Below are positions 28,965 to 36,239 of a stretch of DNA of 64,000 nt, piece after piece. Numbering within the stretch: the first letter of the stretch is position 1; every line of letters begins with the position of its first letter. Source of the DNA: an uncultured Rhodothermales bacterium (GTDB taxonomy: Bacteria; Bacteroidota; Rhodothermia; Rhodothermales; VXPQ01). The stretch lies in the NCBI GenBank assembly GCA_964487555.1, contig CAZART010000010.1, forward strand, positions 349-64,348, given 5' to 3'. The notes under the pieces are model-generated. The model was not told the DNA's origin, did not search any database, and saw nothing but the letters and a program-made list of their open reading frames with translations. Both the position numbers and the translations under genes were made by a program.

Positions 28965-29159
28965 CGACCGGCGCAGCGCCGCCGCCCGAGTATTGCCACC
29001 CGAATCTTTGGCGACGACGGGTCGTAGGAGGGGGTCGTTTGGCGGAACAGCCTGGGCAGGCCTTCCGCCTTCTTTGTGGATGTTGAATTGCAGCGATTTT
29101 CGTATCCATCCTCCGCGGCTTGCCAACCGTCTACGGTCGATCAATGCAATCGAGACGAC

Positions 29160-30302
29160 ATGGCTAAAATTGTATACGCACTTAGTGGGCAGGGCCGCGG
29201 ACATACATCCCGAGCCATGGCCGTTTCGGACGAGCTCCGAGCGCAGGGGCACGAGATTGTCTACTGCTGCGGCGGGACCGCCCGCGACATTCTCGATGCT
29301 GCGGGCGAGCCGGTTGTAGCCGTGCCTCCGCTACGACAGGTGCTCGAGGGCAACCAGGTCCGGTTCGTCGACACGATTCGCAGCAACTGGAATTCGATTA
29401 CGCGCCTCAACGAGATCGTTGACGACCTCGCCGATGCGTTCGCGGATTTTCGCCCCGATCTCGTGATCACCGATTTTGAGGCGTTTTCGCACCGTGCGGC
29501 GGATCGACTCAACGTCCCCGTCCTCTCGTTCAATCATCAACAGATTATCACCGAGACCCGCTACGATCTACCGATCAAGTACCGCATCGACGCGGCAATC
29601 TCGTCCGTCGTCGTCCGTCTGATCGCGCCGTCGCATCCGCGGCACCTTCTCATCACTTCATTTTTCTTTCCACCGCTGAAGGACCCTCTGCGAACGACCC
29701 TCATCGCACCGATCATCCGACCCGGTATAGAATCCATTGCGCCGCAGTCGGGCGACCACGTTCTCGTCTATTATAACAGCACGGACGGCGCCGAGCACGT
29801 GCTTCAGACGCTTGGCGACGTCGAGGCATCCTTCATCGTATACAATTTTACCAAGCCTGCAAATGCAGAGCGTTATCACAACGTGCAGTTCAAGGAGCCG
29901 TGCATCGACGAATTCCTCAAGGACCTTGCGTCGAGCCGTTCGGTGATATCAACCGCCGGTTTCACCTTGATCAGCGAGGCCCTCTACCTGGGCAAGCCCC
30001 TCCTCGTCGTGCCCAACAGAGGCATTTTCGAGCAGACCTTGAATGCCTTATTTCTTCAGAGAAACGGTCTGGGTGCGGCGGTATTCGATCAGCCGCTCAC
30101 CCCCGACGACGTTATCACCTTTCTGAGCCACCATAAATCCTATGAAGCCAGACTGTTAGACCGCGCTACGAGCGGGAACAAAGACGCGATCGCCTGTATC
30201 GAAAGCGTGCTCTCTTCGATTACGCCTCACCCCCACCCGAGGCCCACACTTTCGTACGAAGCCGTCGCAGGTTCTCCCATCGGACGCTCCCTCAGAAGCT
30301 AG
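29160..30302 (+). CDS. GT-B glycosyltransferase (MGT / MJ1255-like family)
   Basis: MAKIVYALSGQGRGHTSRAMAVSDELRAQGHEI, and C-terminal ISTAGFTLISEALYLGKPLLVVP. Confidence 0.6.
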   Translation: MAKIVYALSGQGRGHTSRAMAVSDELRAQGHEIVYCCGGTARDILDAAGEPVVAVPPLRQVLEGNQVRFVDTIRSNWNSITRLNEIVDDLADAFADFRPDLVITDFEAFSHRAADRLNVPVLSFNHQQIITETRYDLPIKYRIDAAISSVVVRLIAPSHPRHLLITSFFFPPLKDPLRTTLIAPIIRPGIESIAPQSGDHVLVYYNSTDGAEHVLQTLGDVEASFIVYNFTKPANAERYHNVQFKEPCIDEFLKDLASSRSVISTAGFTLISEALYLGKPLLVVPNRGIFEQTLNALFLQRNGLGAAVFDQPLTPDDVITFLSHHKSYEARLLDRATSGNKDAIACIESVLSSITPHPHPRPTLSYEAVAGSPIGRSLRS

Positions 30303-30427
30303 AGCGACTGTGTGTGTGGGAATTGTGTATTTTGGCCGCTAAGTTGATGCAACGAAGGAACGTAGCGGTACACCAGCGTATCAGCGACTTTCCTCATGTG
30401 CTTCCTCCAGTTTTTCATGAATCGAAC

Positions 30428-31723
30428 ATGACCTTGCCTGACTTTCATCGGAAGAACGACAGCACTCATCCGGCACAGGAGGCACAGACCGTTCGAGAGG
30501 AGCCGTCGCTCTTCGAAAAGTGTCATCGCTTCTTTGATCAAACGGGCGACTATGCGCTGGTGAAGGCCGCGGATCTCTATCCGTACTTCCGGCCCATCGA
30601 GCGCAACGAAGGCTCACGCGCTATCATGAACGGCCGTGAGATCATCATGGCGGGGTCGAACAACTATCTAGGTCTCACCTCCGATCCGCGCGTTCAGGAG
30701 GCCGCCGCCCGCGCCATCAAGCAGTATGGTACGGGCTGCACAGGCAGCCGATTTTTGAACGGAACCCTCGATCTTCACATCGAGCTGGAGGAGCGCCTTG
30801 CGCGGTTCATGGGCCGCGAGGCCACTGTACTCTTCTCGACGGGCTACATGACCAACGAAGGCGTGATTCAGGCCGTCGCCTCCAAGAACGACTATATCTT
30901 CTCCGATAAGGACAATCACGCTTGCATTGTTGCCGGCACGCAGGTGAGCCTCGCCGAAACGCTTCGTTATCGGCACAATGATCTCGATCATCTGCGGCGG
31001 CTGCTCGAGAAGGTGCAAACCGAAGATCCCGAAGCTGGCAAGCTAATCGTTACCGACGGCGTCTTCTCGATGAGCGGCGTCATTGCCAAGGTGCCCGAAC
31101 TGGCGGCGCTCGCCGATGAATTCGGGGCCGCACTGATGCTCGACGACGCGCACGCGTGCGGCGTGATCGGCCCCGGAGGGCGAGGTTCTGCCGCTTTCTT
31201 CGGTCTCCAGGATTCCGTCCATCTCACCACAGGGACGTTCTCGAAGAGCTTTGCCTCCCTCGGAGGCTTCTGCGTCGGCAGCGAAGACGTCATCGAGTTC
31301 ATTCGCCACCGCAGCTCCACGCACGTCTTCAGTGCCTCCATGCCGCCCGCGAACGTGGCAACGGTCCTCAAATGCCTCGATATCCTGGAAACCGAACCTG
31401 AACGGCTCGATCGCCTCTGGGAAATTTCGGATTACATGCGAGCCGGCTTCCGCGATGCCGGATTCAACGTATGGTCGAGCCAGTCGCCCATTATTCCGGT
31501 AGTGATCGGCGACATGATGACCTGCTTTGAGTTCTGGCGCGACCTCCTCGATGAAGGCGTCTTCGTCAACGCCGTCGTTCCGCCTGCCGTGCCGCAGGGC
31601 CAATCGCTGATGCGAACGTCGTATATGGCCACGCATACCGACGAGGAACTCGACTTTATCCTCGAGGCATTCCGGCGCGTCGGCAGAAAGCATGGCGTCG
31701 TCACCAGTAATGGCGCCGCATAG
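30428..31723 (+). CDS. PLP-dependent alpha-oxoamine synthase (serine palmitoyltransferase / KBL / AONS family)
   Basis: AGSNNYLGL, GTGCTGSRFLNGT, DDAHACGVIG, and GTFSKSFASLGGF, which carries the PLP lysine. The substrate cannot be decided from sequence by eye. Confidence 0.8.
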   Translation: MTLPDFHRKNDSTHPAQEAQTVREEPSLFEKCHRFFDQTGDYALVKAADLYPYFRPIERNEGSRAIMNGREIIMAGSNNYLGLTSDPRVQEAAARAIKQYGTGCTGSRFLNGTLDLHIELEERLARFMGREATVLFSTGYMTNEGVIQAVASKNDYIFSDKDNHACIVAGTQVSLAETLRYRHNDLDHLRRLLEKVQTEDPEAGKLIVTDGVFSMSGVIAKVPELAALADEFGAALMLDDAHACGVIGPGGRGSAAFFGLQDSVHLTTGTFSKSFASLGGFCVGSEDVIEFIRHRSSTHVFSASMPPANVATVLKCLDILETEPERLDRLWEISDYMRAGFRDAGFNVWSSQSPIIPVVIGDMMTCFEFWRDLLDEGVFVNAVVPPAVPQGQSLMRTSYMATHTDEELDFILEAFRRVGRKHGVVTSNGAA

Positions 31724-31845
31724 GCTGAAACAGTACGTCGCCATGCTGGGCCCGTCCACGCCTCCGAAACGTTGTGTGCGCGGCGCGGTGTGAACCGGTG
31801 CATGCTTATCTTGGCACCTGATTCTGCCGTTCATCCTCCGTCCCC

Positions 31846-32985
31846 ATGCCCGCATCCGTCGCCGTCCGACCTGTCTACTCACTTCGCGAGCGAAAGCGTT
31901 TCGTAGACTTCCAGTACGAGCTCTATCAAACGAATCCCCATTGGATTCCTCCGCTCCGCCGGGACGTTCACAAGTCGCTGAATCCTCGCAAGAACGCCTT
32001 CTTCGATCATGGAAAAATGCAGCTATTCCTGGCGGAAGACGAATCCGGACGGGTACTCGGCCGCATCGCAGCCATCACGAACGGCATGCACCTGCGGAAA
32101 TACGATGACGCCAACGGGTTCTTCGGTTTTTTCGAGACGATCGACGACTTTGGCGTAGCGTCATCCCTTCTCGACGCTGCGCGGGCATGGCTGCAGTCGG
32201 CCGGAATGAAGGGGGTTCGCGGACCAGCCAATCCGACCTTGAACGACACGTCCGGACTGCTCGTCGGCGGATTCGATCGAGAGCCATCGGTGCTCATGCC
32301 GTACAATCCCGCGTATTACGAGCAACTCCTTATTCGCTACGGCTTCAAACGGGCCATGACCATGTGGGCGTACTATATCCACAAGAAATACGTTAAGCTC
32401 GACAAGCTGCGCAGAGGCGCAGAAATCGTTCGCCGGAGGAATCCGGGCCTTGCGCTCCGAAACATCGACATGAGCCGGTTCGACAAGGAAGCCGAAACGA
32501 TCCTTCGTATTTACAATGACGCGTGGTCGCGTAACTGGGGGCATGTCCCCATGACGGAGGCTGAATTCAGCCAGCTCGCCGGCGAGATGAAGCAAATCAT
32601 CGATCCGAAGATCGTGTATGTTCTCGAAGATGACGGCCGCCCGGTTGCCTTCTCTATCTCGATTCCGAATATCAACCAGCTCTTGAAACACATTTCGAAC
32701 GGACGACTGTTGCCGCTCGGTCTGCCGAAAATGCTGGCGTACGCGAAATTCGGCGGCCTGTACGAATGTCGAACACCGCTGATGGGCGTGCTCCGCGAAT
32801 ACCAGGGGCGTGGACTGGACGCCATTCTAAATCTCGCGATCATCGACGAAGGCCCGAAGAACGGCTACGATGCGAGTGAGATGAGCTGGGTGCTTGACTC
32901 GAACAAGGTGCTCCGCAACGCCCTCGAATCCTTCGGCGCCGTGATCGACAAGGAGTACGCCATGCTAGAGATGCGCTTCACGTAA
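31846..32985 (+). CDS. Uncharacterised GNAT-like acyltransferase
   Basis: A 379-aa ORF with NPHWIPPLRRD near the N-terminus and the GNAT motif-A-like VLREYQGRGLDAILN near the C-terminus. Confidence 0.45.
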   Translation: MPASVAVRPVYSLRERKRFVDFQYELYQTNPHWIPPLRRDVHKSLNPRKNAFFDHGKMQLFLAEDESGRVLGRIAAITNGMHLRKYDDANGFFGFFETIDDFGVASSLLDAARAWLQSAGMKGVRGPANPTLNDTSGLLVGGFDREPSVLMPYNPAYYEQLLIRYGFKRAMTMWAYYIHKKYVKLDKLRRGAEIVRRRNPGLALRNIDMSRFDKEAETILRIYNDAWSRNWGHVPMTEAEFSQLAGEMKQIIDPKIVYVLEDDGRPVAFSISIPNINQLLKHISNGRLLPLGLPKMLAYAKFGGLYECRTPLMGVLREYQGRGLDAILNLAIIDEGPKNGYDASEMSWVLDSNKVLRNALESFGAVIDKEYAMLEMRFT

Positions 32986-32991
32986 TTTGCC

Positions 32992-33855
32992 GTGTCTTTC
33001 TCTTCCTCCTCGAAGTCTCGCATCGGACGTGTTGCCGAATTTCCGGTCCATGGATGGGCCGGAATCGTCCTCGCGATCATCTCATGGATTCTGAATTGGA
33101 CGCTTGACGGCCCGCGGACACACGTATTTTTCTTTCCCCTCTGGTTCGGTTACACCCTTGCCGTCGACAGCCTCGTCTACGTGCGACGAGGATCCTCCAT
33201 CCTCACCCGCTCCCGGGGTCGTTTCGCCCTCCTGTTCGTCATCTCCGCGCCTGCCTGGTGGTTGTTCGAGCTGTTTAATCGGCATACGCAAAACTGGCAT
33301 TACCACGGCGCCGAACTTTTTACCTACCTCGAGTACGCCGCCCTGGCTTCCATCGCCTTTTCGACCGTGATGCCGGCCGTGTTCGAGACGGCCGAGCTCG
33401 TCCGCTCGCATTCTCGCATCGACCGCTTGAGCCGGGGTCCGCGCATCATCGGCTCGCGTCGTGTCACGTGGGCCATCTTCATCACCGGGTGGCTGCTTCT
33501 AATCGGCATCGTGCTTCTCCCGCACGCACTGTATCCCTTCATTTGGGCCACCGTTTTTTGCCTCGTCGAGCCGACGAATGTCTGGCTGGGCCGTCCTTCC
33601 CTGTTCGACGGGCTTGGTCAAGGAGACTGGCGACCTACCGCGTCTCTGGCAATCGGCGCTCTCATCTGCGGGTTTTTCTGGGAGCTCTGGAATGTCTGGT
33701 CGTTCCCTAAGTGGACCTACCATACACCGGGCGTTGACTTCTGGTATATCTTCGAGATGCCTCTACTCGGATACATAGGCTATCTGCCTTTCGGACTGGA
33801 ACTTTTTGCACTGGGCCATCTCGCCCGAGGCCGCAAGCTCGGCGTGAATCTTTGA
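32992..33855 (+). CDS. Hypothetical polytopic membrane protein
   Basis: About 7 hydrophobic helices and a Trp-rich sequence (FWELWNVWSFPKWTYH). It has a GTG start 6 nt after the previous stop. I recognise no family. Confidence 0.45.
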   Translation: MSFSSSSKSRIGRVAEFPVHGWAGIVLAIISWILNWTLDGPRTHVFFFPLWFGYTLAVDSLVYVRRGSSILTRSRGRFALLFVISAPAWWLFELFNRHTQNWHYHGAELFTYLEYAALASIAFSTVMPAVFETAELVRSHSRIDRLSRGPRIIGSRRVTWAIFITGWLLLIGIVLLPHALYPFIWATVFCLVEPTNVWLGRPSLFDGLGQGDWRPTASLAIGALICGFFWELWNVWSFPKWTYHTPGVDFWYIFEMPLLGYIGYLPFGLELFALGHLARGRKLGVNL

Positions 33856-34008: not shown

Positions 34009-34905
34009 ATGAGCATGATGAAGACGATCGAGCTTGGCAACACCGGAATCCGACTGAGTGCTATCGGGCTGGGTGCGATGCACCTTTCATTAGAGGGACG
34101 TCCCGCGAGACCGGAAGCACTGGCCGTAATTCACCGCGCGCTCGACGTCGGCATCACGTTCATCGACACAGCCGACGCCTACTGCCGCGACGAGGCCGAT
34201 AAACATCACAACGAATGTCTTGTTCGGGATGCTCTGGCCACCTACGAAGGCGATGCGGCCGGTATTTATGTGGCAACGAAGGGCGGGCTCATGCGATACG
34301 GGGGCGAATGGCCACGAAACGGAAGTCCCGACCACCTTCGCGCCACCATTCGGGAGAGTGTCGACGCGCTCGGCGGTGCGCCGATCTTTCTGTGGCAGCA
34401 TCATGCACCCGATCCCGACGTGCCTGTCGACGAGTCGCTTCAGCCGGTCCGCGAGGCCGTCGACGAGGGGCTGATCCAGTACGTCGGCGTGTCTAATTAC
34501 TCCGTCGGTCACCTAGACAAAGCGCGAGAGATCGTTGAGATTACATCGGTGCAGAATCAGTACAGCCTCTGGCATCGGAGCCCGGAACGCGACGGAACCC
34601 TCCAGTACTGCGAGCAGCACGGTCTTACATTTCTCCCATGGAGACCGCTGGGCGGAAAAGATCGGGCGAAGCGAATGGCGAGCTATGCGGCGCTGAATGC
34701 CGTGGCAGGGGCGCACCACCTTTCGCCGCAGTGTATCGCGCTGGCGTGGTTGCGGCACAAGTCCCCCACCATACTGCCTATTCCCGGCGCCAGCCGCTCC
34801 GAAACGATTGAGGATTCCGTGCGTGCCGCCGGCGTCGATTTGACCGACGACGAAGCCGACCGCATCGAAAAGGAGGCCGAGGGCGTACGATCCGGCGCCC
34901 GCTGA
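34009..34905 (+). CDS. Aldo/keto reductase
   Basis: LGAMHLS, FIDTADAY, GVSNYSV and LPIPGASR are the AKR signatures. Confidence 0.85.
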   Translation: MSMMKTIELGNTGIRLSAIGLGAMHLSLEGRPARPEALAVIHRALDVGITFIDTADAYCRDEADKHHNECLVRDALATYEGDAAGIYVATKGGLMRYGGEWPRNGSPDHLRATIRESVDALGGAPIFLWQHHAPDPDVPVDESLQPVREAVDEGLIQYVGVSNYSVGHLDKAREIVEITSVQNQYSLWHRSPERDGTLQYCEQHGLTFLPWRPLGGKDRAKRMASYAALNAVAGAHHLSPQCIALAWLRHKSPTILPIPGASRSETIEDSVRAAGVDLTDDEADRIEKEAEGVRSGAR

Positions 34906-34913
34906 GACGTTCC

Positions 34914-36239
34914 ATGCCCGACCTTGCCGAAACCCACGTCGTTACCTGCTTTCTGCGTGCCGGCACTAACGTACTGCTTCTGCTCAGGAGCCACGACGTA
35001 GGTACCTACGCAGGAAAATGGGGCGCCGTGGCCGGTCACGTAGAGGGCGACCCCGACAGATCAGCGTTTCGCGAGATACGTGAGGAAACGGGCTTTGAGG
35101 CACCCGATCTTATTCGGCGTGGCGAGCCGTTCGAAGTACGTGACGCGCGTCTAGGAAAGCGCTGGATCGTGCATCCGTATCTCTTCGACGTCCCAAACCG
35201 CGTACCCAAACTGAACCGGGAATCCTCGAAGTACGAATGGGCGCCCCCCACGGAAATCCTACGGCGCGACACCGTGCCCGAGCTGTGGACCTCCTATCGG
35301 CATGTCGGCCCGACGCCGACTTCTATCCGCCAGGACACCTTTCACGGCTCGGCTTACCTCTCGATGCGAGCTGTTGAGGCCCTTCGTGACCGAGCGGCGG
35401 AGCTCGCACTCGCAGCGACAGGCGGTGTCGCAGGCGACGCAATGAGCTCGGATGCCGGCAATCAACGGCCGCCCGGCGACTCGGCCCGAAGCGCATCCTG
35501 GCAGGAGCTATGCGCACTTGCCGAATCGCTGCTTGCGAGTCGCCCGTCGATGACGGCCGTACACCACCGCGTAAACCGCGTGATGTATGCTGCCGCCCAA
35601 CACGCAACGCCGAGATCTGTCGAAGCAGCGGCGGCCGAGATATTGGCTCGTGCCATGCGGACCGACGAGCAAGCGGCCGCGACGGCGGCCCGATTAGTCG
35701 AGGGCAAGCGCGTGCTTACGCTCTCCCGGTCCGGGACCGTTGTGGCGGCTCTGGAGGCGGCGCACGCCGATGTTATCATCGCACACTCGTTGCCGGGCGG
35801 TGAAGGCCGTGCGATGGCAGAACGCCTCGCCGCTAACGGCGTACGCGTGGCCATGTGCTCCGACGCCGGCATAGCGGCCGCGTGCGATCATGCTGACGTA
35901 GTGCTGGTCGGAGCCGACACCGTCCTCGCCGACGGCTCGGTCGTGAACAAAGTCGGAACCCGCCCGGCCGCCCTCGCCGCTCGCGCCCGGCAGATTCCCT
36001 TCTACGTAGCCGCCGCAATCGATAAAATATCGCCGAAAAAGAACGTTGACCTGGAGCAGGCACGTCGAGACACGCTCTATGACGGGGATGCATCCATCGA
36101 AGTGATCCATCCCCTCTTCGAAACGACTCCGCCGGAGCTGATTACGGCGATTATCACCGAGGAGGGAACGATCGCCCCCTCCGACGTCGCGGATTTGGCC
36201 GATGAACTTCGACGGCTCGAGTCGTGGCATTGTGGATGA
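34914..36239 (+). CDS. Fusion protein: N-terminal NUDIX hydrolase + C-terminal eIF-2B alpha/beta/delta-like (ribose-1,5-bisphosphate / MTR-1-P isomerase family) domain
   Basis: NUDIX box GKWGAVAGHVEGDPDRSAFREIREETGF. The C-terminal half has VLTLSRSGTV, VIIAHSLPGGEG, VLVGADTVLADGSVVNKVGT and IPFYVAAAIDKI. Confidence 0.7.
   Translation: MPDLAETHVVTCFLRAGTNVLLLLRSHDVGTYAGKWGAVAGHVEGDPDRSAFREIREETGFEAPDLIRRGEPFEVRDARLGKRWIVHPYLFDVPNRVPKLNRESSKYEWAPPTEILRRDTVPELWTSYRHVGPTPTSIRQDTFHGSAYLSMRAVEALRDRAAELALAATGGVAGDAMSSDAGNQRPPGDSARSASWQELCALAESLLASRPSMTAVHHRVNRVMYAAAQHATPRSVEAAAAEILARAMRTDEQAAATAARLVEGKRVLTLSRSGTVVAALEAAHADVIIAHSLPGGEGRAMAERLAANGVRVAMCSDAGIAAACDHADVVLVGADTVLADGSVVNKVGTRPAALAARARQIPFYVAAAIDKISPKKNVDLEQARRDTLYDGDASIEVIHPLFETTPPELITAIITEEGTIAPSDVADLADELRRLESWHCG

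Follow-up and report, generated by a model that had tools for sequence, protein, structure and literature searches.

The window analyzed here, a stretch of 64,000 nucleotides from contig CAZART010000010.1 of an uncultured Rhodothermales bacterium, carries on its forward strand a gene in which a NUDIX domain is fused to a domain of the eIF-2B family. Judging by its sequence, the encoded protein is a member of the HVO_1934-type NUDIX/eIF-2B family, which is known, widespread and already annotated. A first-pass annotation had proposed that the two domains act in succession, the first releasing a ribose phosphate and the second isomerizing it. According to our analysis the fusion is genuine, and its second domain is probably not an isomerase. 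The features of the gene are the following.

34914..36239, + strand: open reading frame of the NUDIX/eIF-2B-domain fusion protein (P0001), with an ATG start, 441 amino acids plus stop
34914..35312, + strand: Nudix domain, residues 1-133, a compact MutT-like alpha/beta/alpha fold (PF00293, 48.8 bits; predicted local distance difference test, pLDDT, of the domain model 95)
35022..35096, + strand: Nudix box region GAVAGHVEGDPDRSAFREIREETGF, residues 37-61; E54, E57 and E58 kept, E44 nearly invariant, R53 variable
35265..35312, + strand: inter-domain linker RRDTVPxLWTSYxxVxP, residues 118-133; R118, P122, L124 and W125 invariant
35316..36236, + strand: eIF-2B-family domain, residues 135-441, with a helical N-lobe and a Rossmann-like C-lobe (PF01008, 161.7 bits; profile-to-PDB alignment; Foldseek)
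35421..35489, + strand: lineage-specific loop, residues 170-192, predicted disordered (alignment gap columns; pLDDT about 50)
35718..35738, + strand: invariant motif TLSRSGT, residues 269-275; S271 is at the site of the catalytic Cys and S273 at that of the 5-phosphate ligand Ser137
35910..35951, + strand: G333-A-D335 ... N345-K346, equivalents of Asp204 (second catalytic residue) and of Asn214 and Lys215 (sugar/phosphate ligands)

Architecture and integrity of the fusion

Both domains that the first-pass annotation expected were recovered with Pfam: residues 10-127 match NUDIX (PF00293) at 48.8 bits (E 9.3e-13, cut-off 21.1), and residues 196-422 match IF-2B (PF01008) at 161.7 bits (E 2.9e-47, cut-off 22.4). 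The motifs quoted in it, VLVGADTVLADGSVVNKVGT and IPFYVAAAIDK, are likewise present in the translated reading frame. All family counts given here refer to the best 120 full-length homologues listed, from a family whose total exceeds 120. The two Pfam domains occur together in 120/120 of these proteins, which cover 95-100% of the query (nearly all of them at least 98%) with identities of 47-67%. AlphaFold2 models the whole protein, with a pLDDT of 92.5 and a predicted template modelling score (pTM) of 0.90, as a single compact unit in which the two domains have a fixed orientation, and the linker that joins them (R118...P133) ranks among the most conserved stretches of the family. Because two-domain homologues, a conserved linker and a single confident model are all found, the fusion is real, and a frameshift or an assembly error joining two separate genes is ruled out.

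The loop at residues 170-192 is the sole disordered region of the whole-protein model. It comprises about 23 residues, many of them Gly, Ser, Asp or Pro, and separates the first and second helices of the IF-2B domain; most family members lack it, and it is partly common to the closest relatives of the window protein (P0002-P0004). No additional Pfam domain was found in the longer members of the family, which reach 661 amino acids.

The first-pass annotation knew of no characterised member with this fusion. This holds for the literature searched, in which we found no biochemically characterised member of the family, but the architecture itself has already been annotated, as HVO_1934 of H. volcanii (PMC8576121).

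Conserved residues of the two domains

The claim of a complete NUDIX box was correct for the catalytic helix, REIREETGF, which is intact, but not for the region upstream of it. The spacing there is E-x8-RE, one residue longer than in the canonical G-x5-E-x7-RE, and the canonical pattern GX5EX7REUXEEXGU is matched by 1/120 family members, with 96/120 matching E-x8-xEUxEExGU. The metal-binding glutamates are kept across the family (E54 in 120/120, E57 in 118/120 and E58 in 120/120), and residue 53 is variable (R in 46 of the 120 proteins, E in 34 and Q in 15). Searched alone with Foldseek, the domain matches many Nudix structures at probability 1.00, the best being NudI, the MutT of M. mazei, BdRppH, ORF135/NudG, YmfB and Ap4A hydrolases. 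Its modelled fold looks like that of pyrophosphohydrolases of nucleoside triphosphates (NTPs), dinucleoside polyphosphates (ApnA) or RNA, and not specifically like that of ADP-ribose pyrophosphatases. The intact glutamate triad argues for a catalytic domain.

If both domains were instead non-catalytic sensors, with the Nudix fold binding a nucleotide such as ADP-ribose as it does in NrtR, the protein would serve as a regulator or a scaffold. The non-canonical spacing of the box and the variability of R53 are consistent with such a role, as is the absence of a phenotype in the haloarchaeal deletion (PMC3828320); the ADP-ribose-binding Nudix domain of NrtR is also found among the fold matches, although only at rank 37. 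However, the metal-binding residues E54, E57 and E58 are essentially invariant, and Pfam revealed no DNA-binding or other output domain in the family, its longer members included. We regard this explanation as improbable.

For the eIF-2B-like domain, the family profile was aligned to the PDB chains of PH0208 (residues 8-309) and Tk-R15PI, which are ribose-1,5-bisphosphate (R15P) isomerases, and PH0208 crystal structures (PMC5789824) supplied the roles of the mapped residues. The residues correspond as follows, with the number of family members that conserve each one.

Cys135 of PH0208 (Cys133 in Tk-R15PI; catalytic): Ser271, 120/120
Asp204 of PH0208 (Asp202 in Tk-R15PI; catalytic): Asp335, 120/120
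Asn214 and Lys215 of PH0208 (sugar and phosphate ligands): Asn345 and Lys346, 120/120 each
Ser137 of PH0208 (5-phosphate ligand): Ser273, 120/120
Lys240 of PH0208 (5-phosphate ligand): Lys371, 120/120
Arg65 of PH0208 (1-phosphate ligand): Arg210, 116/120
Arg22 of PH0208 (1-phosphate ligand): His144, 118/120
Gln166 of PH0208 (1-phosphate ligand): Glu297, 120/120

The set of 1-phosphate ligands (Arg22, Arg65, Gln166 and Lys215) is incomplete, with two of them swapped and R210 and K346 kept, and a further pocket residue, Asp370, is invariant in the family (120/120). The Pyrococcus enzyme with the C135S mutation bound R15P and lost its activity (PMC5789824); our family profile scores the chain of this mutant above that of the wild type. 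No NCBIfam isomerase model reached its cut-off for the fusion protein: TIGR00511 (ribose-1,5-bisphosphate isomerase) scored 104 against 314.1 bits, and TIGR00512 (MtnA) 56.4 against 279 bits. Given the invariant serine at the catalytic position, the altered 1-phosphate contacts and the missed cut-offs, the first-pass assignment of this domain as a sugar-phosphate isomerase is not supported. To judge from these residues, the domain probably binds a phosphosugar or a nucleotide without converting it. The invariant change from Cys to Ser warns against the names “ribose-1,5-bisphosphate isomerase” and “MtnA”, both of which are used in some automatic annotations.

About twenty of the cluster representatives that most resemble the C-terminal domain are apparently complete stand-alone proteins of 280-320 amino acids, and they carry the D..HG / TLSRSGT / EG / GAD signature. 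Examples are P0126, P0131, P0166, P0229, P0241 and P0257, in which the signature reads D..HG, T[LH]S[RY]S, EG, GAD. Because such proteins share the signature, the Cys-less domain is, at the sequence level, a subfamily of its own that exists both free and fused. This suggests that the fused domain derives from the free-living Cys-less subfamily, which is possibly of the HVO_2706 type.

A catalytic role of the pocket would be retained in a two-step channel, where the Nudix domain frees a phosphoribose, either ribose 5-phosphate from ADP-ribose or R15P from phosphoribosyl pyrophosphate (PRPP), and the eIF-2B-like domain isomerizes it with a base other than Cys, for which Glu297, His144 or Asp370 are the candidates. 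Asp335, Arg210 and the ligands of the sugar and the 5-phosphate are all still present in the pocket, which has also gained the invariant acid/base residues His144, Glu297 and Asp370. The rigid conserved linker suggests a functional coupling of the domains, and some Nudix enzymes turn PRPP into R15P in vitro (Fisher et al. 2002, reviewed in PMC13573052). Nevertheless, the catalytic Cys is Ser in 120/120 members, the C135S enzyme is inactive (PMC5789824), and the cut-off of every isomerase hidden Markov model (HMM) is missed by a wide margin. The Cys-less domain might also represent a new type of enzyme that would use His144, Glu297, Asp370 and Asp335, perhaps along with a metal, on a phosphopentose released by the Nudix domain, which we consider quite unlikely. 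If true, it would define a salvage or detoxification route in two channelled steps that is typical of halophiles and tied to PRPP metabolism.

Distribution, neighbourhood and genome context

When one genome per prokaryotic species was scanned, at least 479 reference genomes were found to encode a relative of the fusion protein. The best 80 of these relatives comprise 53 from Halobacteria and 27 from bacteria, the latter belonging to Salinibacter/Salinivenus and other Rhodothermales, Acidobacteriota, metagenome-assembled genomes (MAGs) of Gammaproteobacteria and one Trueperaceae MAG. Within the order of the window organism, the gene is present in 15/151 sampled genomes, including 9/13 of one family, and in 0/13 other genomes of the organism's own family. 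The maximum-likelihood tree, which is unrooted, places the Halobacteria in a single clade (support 98) and the window protein in a mixed bacterial clade (support 96), where it groups with two metagenomic proteins that are its closest relatives (P0002, 67% identical, and P0003, 59%). The distribution is patchy and the bacterial clade is mixed; therefore, these sequence data indicate that the gene was acquired horizontally in this Rhodothermales genome. Between positions 35100 and 36300 of the window, the guanine-cytosine (GC) content is 0.65-0.69 within the IF-2B half of the gene and 0.57-0.61 in the flanks; the raised GC is compatible with a foreign origin or with an Ala-rich composition, and is too weak on its own as evidence of transfer.

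Two metagenome scans yielded no relative above about 50% identity. They gave stand-alone Nudix proteins of 140-155 amino acids (L110:5001-5423, L119:4809-5276 and some ten other loci), whose identity to the N-terminal domain of the fusion is 40-47%, all from non-saline metagenomes and with uninformative neighbours.

The family is conserved in several lineages of halophilic bacteria and in most sampled Halobacteria, and the haloarchaeal literature still carries it as a possible translation factor. The copy described here is by itself an ordinary find, one more member of a known and annotated family. It is well established that bacteria have neither aIF2 nor eIF2. Since the family is present in several bacterial phyla, this genome included, the old label of “translation factor” is doubtful, and the occurrence of the family in organisms without aIF2 argues for a metabolic or regulatory role. 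Under that label, the protein would be an archaeal-type subunit of translation initiation factor 2B (“aIF2Bsu” or “aIF2B-alpha” in the H. volcanii papers) acting on aIF2. Its historic annotation as an eIF-2B subunit speaks for this, as does the in vitro binding of aIF2-alpha by its closest fold match, a PH0440-type protein (Dev et al. 2009, cited in PMC8576121 and PMC3828320). Apart from the bacterial members, the H. volcanii data point the other way: no phenotype was seen under the tested conditions (12 for the single mutants) when HVO_1934 was deleted, either singly or in combination with HVO_2706 (PMC3828320), and in the aIF network HVO_1934 had no more than one or two interactions (PMC8576121). 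We therefore consider this role highly improbable, and for the bacterial members it is already close to refutation.

Directly upstream of the fusion gene lies one further feature.

34009..34905, + strand: aldo/keto reductase open reading frame (PF00248, 189.8 bits), whose stop lies 8 nt before the fusion gene

The 8-nt gap reported by the first-pass annotation is thus confirmed (34009-34905, followed by 34914), and the two genes are probably co-transcribed in the window. The reductase is not a conserved partner: none of 80 related loci has a similar gene within 8 kb of the fusion gene, so that among the loci compared it is unique to the window. This comparison covers the window and the best 80 of at least 479 related reference-genome loci. 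Scans for promoters and terminators around the fusion gene gave nothing above chance. Upstream, at window positions 29076-33855 and co-directional with both genes, there are a GT-B glycosyltransferase, a class I/II aminotransferase (alpha-oxoamine synthase-like), a GNAT-like protein and a protein of 287 amino acids without a Pfam match; a gap of 153 nt separates them from the aldo/keto reductase.

No neighbour conserved across lineages was found among the 80 loci and the window. Near the haloarchaeal fusion genes, a luciferase-like (F420-type) oxidoreductase/monooxygenase occurs in 28 loci and CofE (F420-0:gamma-glutamyl ligase) in 8, and a D-2-hydroxyacid dehydrogenase lies directly downstream in 12. 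Examples of these three neighbours, none of which is shared with the bacterial loci, are found at L018:10043-10978, L014:4285-5265 and L020:4634-5461. MoxR, DUF58 and transglutaminase genes are often nearby in haloarchaeal loci as well, and the loci of Gammaproteobacterial MAGs have an iron-containing alcohol dehydrogenase (Fe-ADH) and a GGDEF-EAL protein. The neighbourhood was considered as a clue to a pathway and rejected as such; with no neighbour common across lineages, we read it as lineage synteny.

In seven Salinibacteraceae loci (Salinibacter/Salinivenus; L016:9413-10555, L028, L066, L069, L070, L073 and L078), the gene prs, which encodes PRPP synthetase (ribose-phosphate pyrophosphokinase), is directly downstream of the fusion gene on the same strand, and is followed by the gene of ribosomal protein L25/TL5. 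In the genome of the window, prs is on another contig (C135). The adjacency in Salinibacteraceae hints at a link between the family and PRPP metabolism, and it counts in favour of the two-step channel; against that channel, it is limited to one lineage, and no pathway genes are conserved beside the fusion gene across lineages.

The genome, with 5.66 Mb and a completeness of 89%, has two IF-2B genes only, the second of which is a bona fide MtnA (429 bits, contig C2). No AMP phosphorylase was detected above the cut-off in it (218 against 535 bits), and for RuBisCO there was only a weak, RuBisCO-like match (71.7 bits to RuBisCO_large). The methionine-salvage check proposed by the first-pass annotation was positive in that MtnA is present, but this is a separate gene located elsewhere and unrelated to the fusion. 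An archaeal pentose-bisphosphate pathway was therefore rejected for this genome, which lacks AMP phosphorylase and a form II/III-grade RuBisCO match and whose two IF-2B genes include MtnA. With pathway genes missing and the catalytic Cys lost, the channelled nucleotide salvage akin to the archaeal pentose-bisphosphate/AMP pathway proposed for the fusion is not supported. The two-step channel would also lack a downstream user of ribulose-1,5-bisphosphate here, where there is only a RuBisCO-like protein and no AMP phosphorylase, and we take it as the main, though unlikely, alternative. The MtnA locus (C2:80171-84043, L001) adjoins a divergent EboA-family “metabolite traffic” gene and a TonB-like gene, and the RuBisCO-like protein (C2:31523-32200) is encoded on this contig too, at a distance of about 50 kb.

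Proposed mechanism and comparison with known proteins

The explanation that we favour, with somewhat better than even confidence, is an active Nudix pyrophosphohydrolase joined to a binding, oligomerizing and non-isomerizing eIF2B-like module that controls or positions the Nudix site. From the folds, residue substitutions and conservation described above we infer a substrate class, ligand binding and allostery. The Nudix domain would be the catalytic part and would cleave a nucleoside-diphosphate-type or pyrophosphate-bearing substrate, with ADP-ribose, PRPP, ApnA and NTPs as candidates. The eIF-2B-like domain is predicted to offer a pocket for a 5-phospho-pentose or a nucleotide that is not isomerized, and it may also oligomerize the protein. 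By analogy with eIF2B-alpha, which senses sugar phosphates, it could position or allosterically control the Nudix site through the rigid conserved linker. The gene would then be a horizontally acquired, stand-alone gene of housekeeping type that operates outside any pentose-bisphosphate pathway.

Several observations weigh against this explanation. The invariant residues gained in the pocket, His144, Glu297 and Asp370, could make another catalytic or metal site, and the strict invariance of TLSRSGT suits catalysis as well as binding. On the Nudix side, the spacing of the box is non-canonical and R53 is variable, and the literature searched offers no biochemically characterised member of the family.

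HVO_1934 itself was matched by description. With its family the window protein shares the order of the two domains and a comparable size (about 400-470 amino acids), and the signature motifs are common to all 120 aligned members. The window protein is 44-54% identical to the haloarchaeal members over 95-100% of its length and differs from them in being bacterial, in lying outside the single Halobacteria clade and in having the disordered loop of about 23 residues.

Compared with the compact MutT-type hydrolases (NudI, NudG/ORF135, BdRppH and Ap4A hydrolases), the Nudix domain superimposes with template modelling (TM) scores of 0.63-0.81 and has the same catalytic Glu triad, whereas the identity is 16-29%, the box spacing is one residue longer, and the fusion family has invariant residues of its own (R25, S26, Y32, W36, D77 and W109). 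With so many family-specific invariant residues, these enzymes do not allow the substrate of the domain to be assigned.

The eIF-2B-like domain matches R15P isomerase, aIF2B and eIF2B chains with a Foldseek E of about 1e-21. It has the same fold as the R15P isomerases (TK0185, PH0208 and Htur_0571; EC 5.3.1.29), with TM scores of 0.78-0.80 when normalised to the target, and it retains the equivalents of Asp204, Asn214, Lys215, Ser137, Lys240 and Arg65. In contrast to these enzymes, it has an invariant Ser for Cys135, His for Arg22 and Glu for Gln166, it is fused to a Nudix domain, and it scores 104 with their HMM, for which the cut-off is 314. In haloarchaea, the R15P isomerase that has been characterised (VNG_1853G, Htur_0571) is a separate stand-alone paralogue, 48% identical to TK0185, that sits in an operon with R1P (ribose-1-phosphate) kinase or nucleoside phosphorylase (PMC9700705), whereas the fusion gene has no such operon.

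The best superposition of the domain is with PH0440 (PDB 1vb5), a Cys-less archaeal “aIF2B” paralogue (TM 0.85, root-mean-square deviation 2.2 A), which is also the top single-sequence PDB match of the fusion protein, with an identity of only about 26%. In PH0440, too, Ser takes the place of the Cys (THSFS) and Glu that of Gln166. Unlike the fusion protein, it stands alone without a Nudix domain, and it has Tyr-Lys where the fusion family has the invariant Asp-Lys.

Our working analogy for the C-terminal domain is eukaryotic eIF2B-alpha, another Cys-less member of the family, which binds 5'/6'-phosphosugars in the ancestral catalytic pocket and is thereby under allosteric control (PMC8187479). 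In eIF2B-alpha, the sugar and 5-phosphate sites are kept, the catalytic Cys is lost and the 1-phosphate site is altered (PMC5789824), and the analogy is drawn because the fusion protein has the same pattern of kept and lost pocket residues. The two proteins differ in that eIF2B-alpha belongs to a decamer that acts on eIF2 as a guanine nucleotide exchange factor, lacks a Nudix domain and carries Glu in place of the Asp of the GAD motif.

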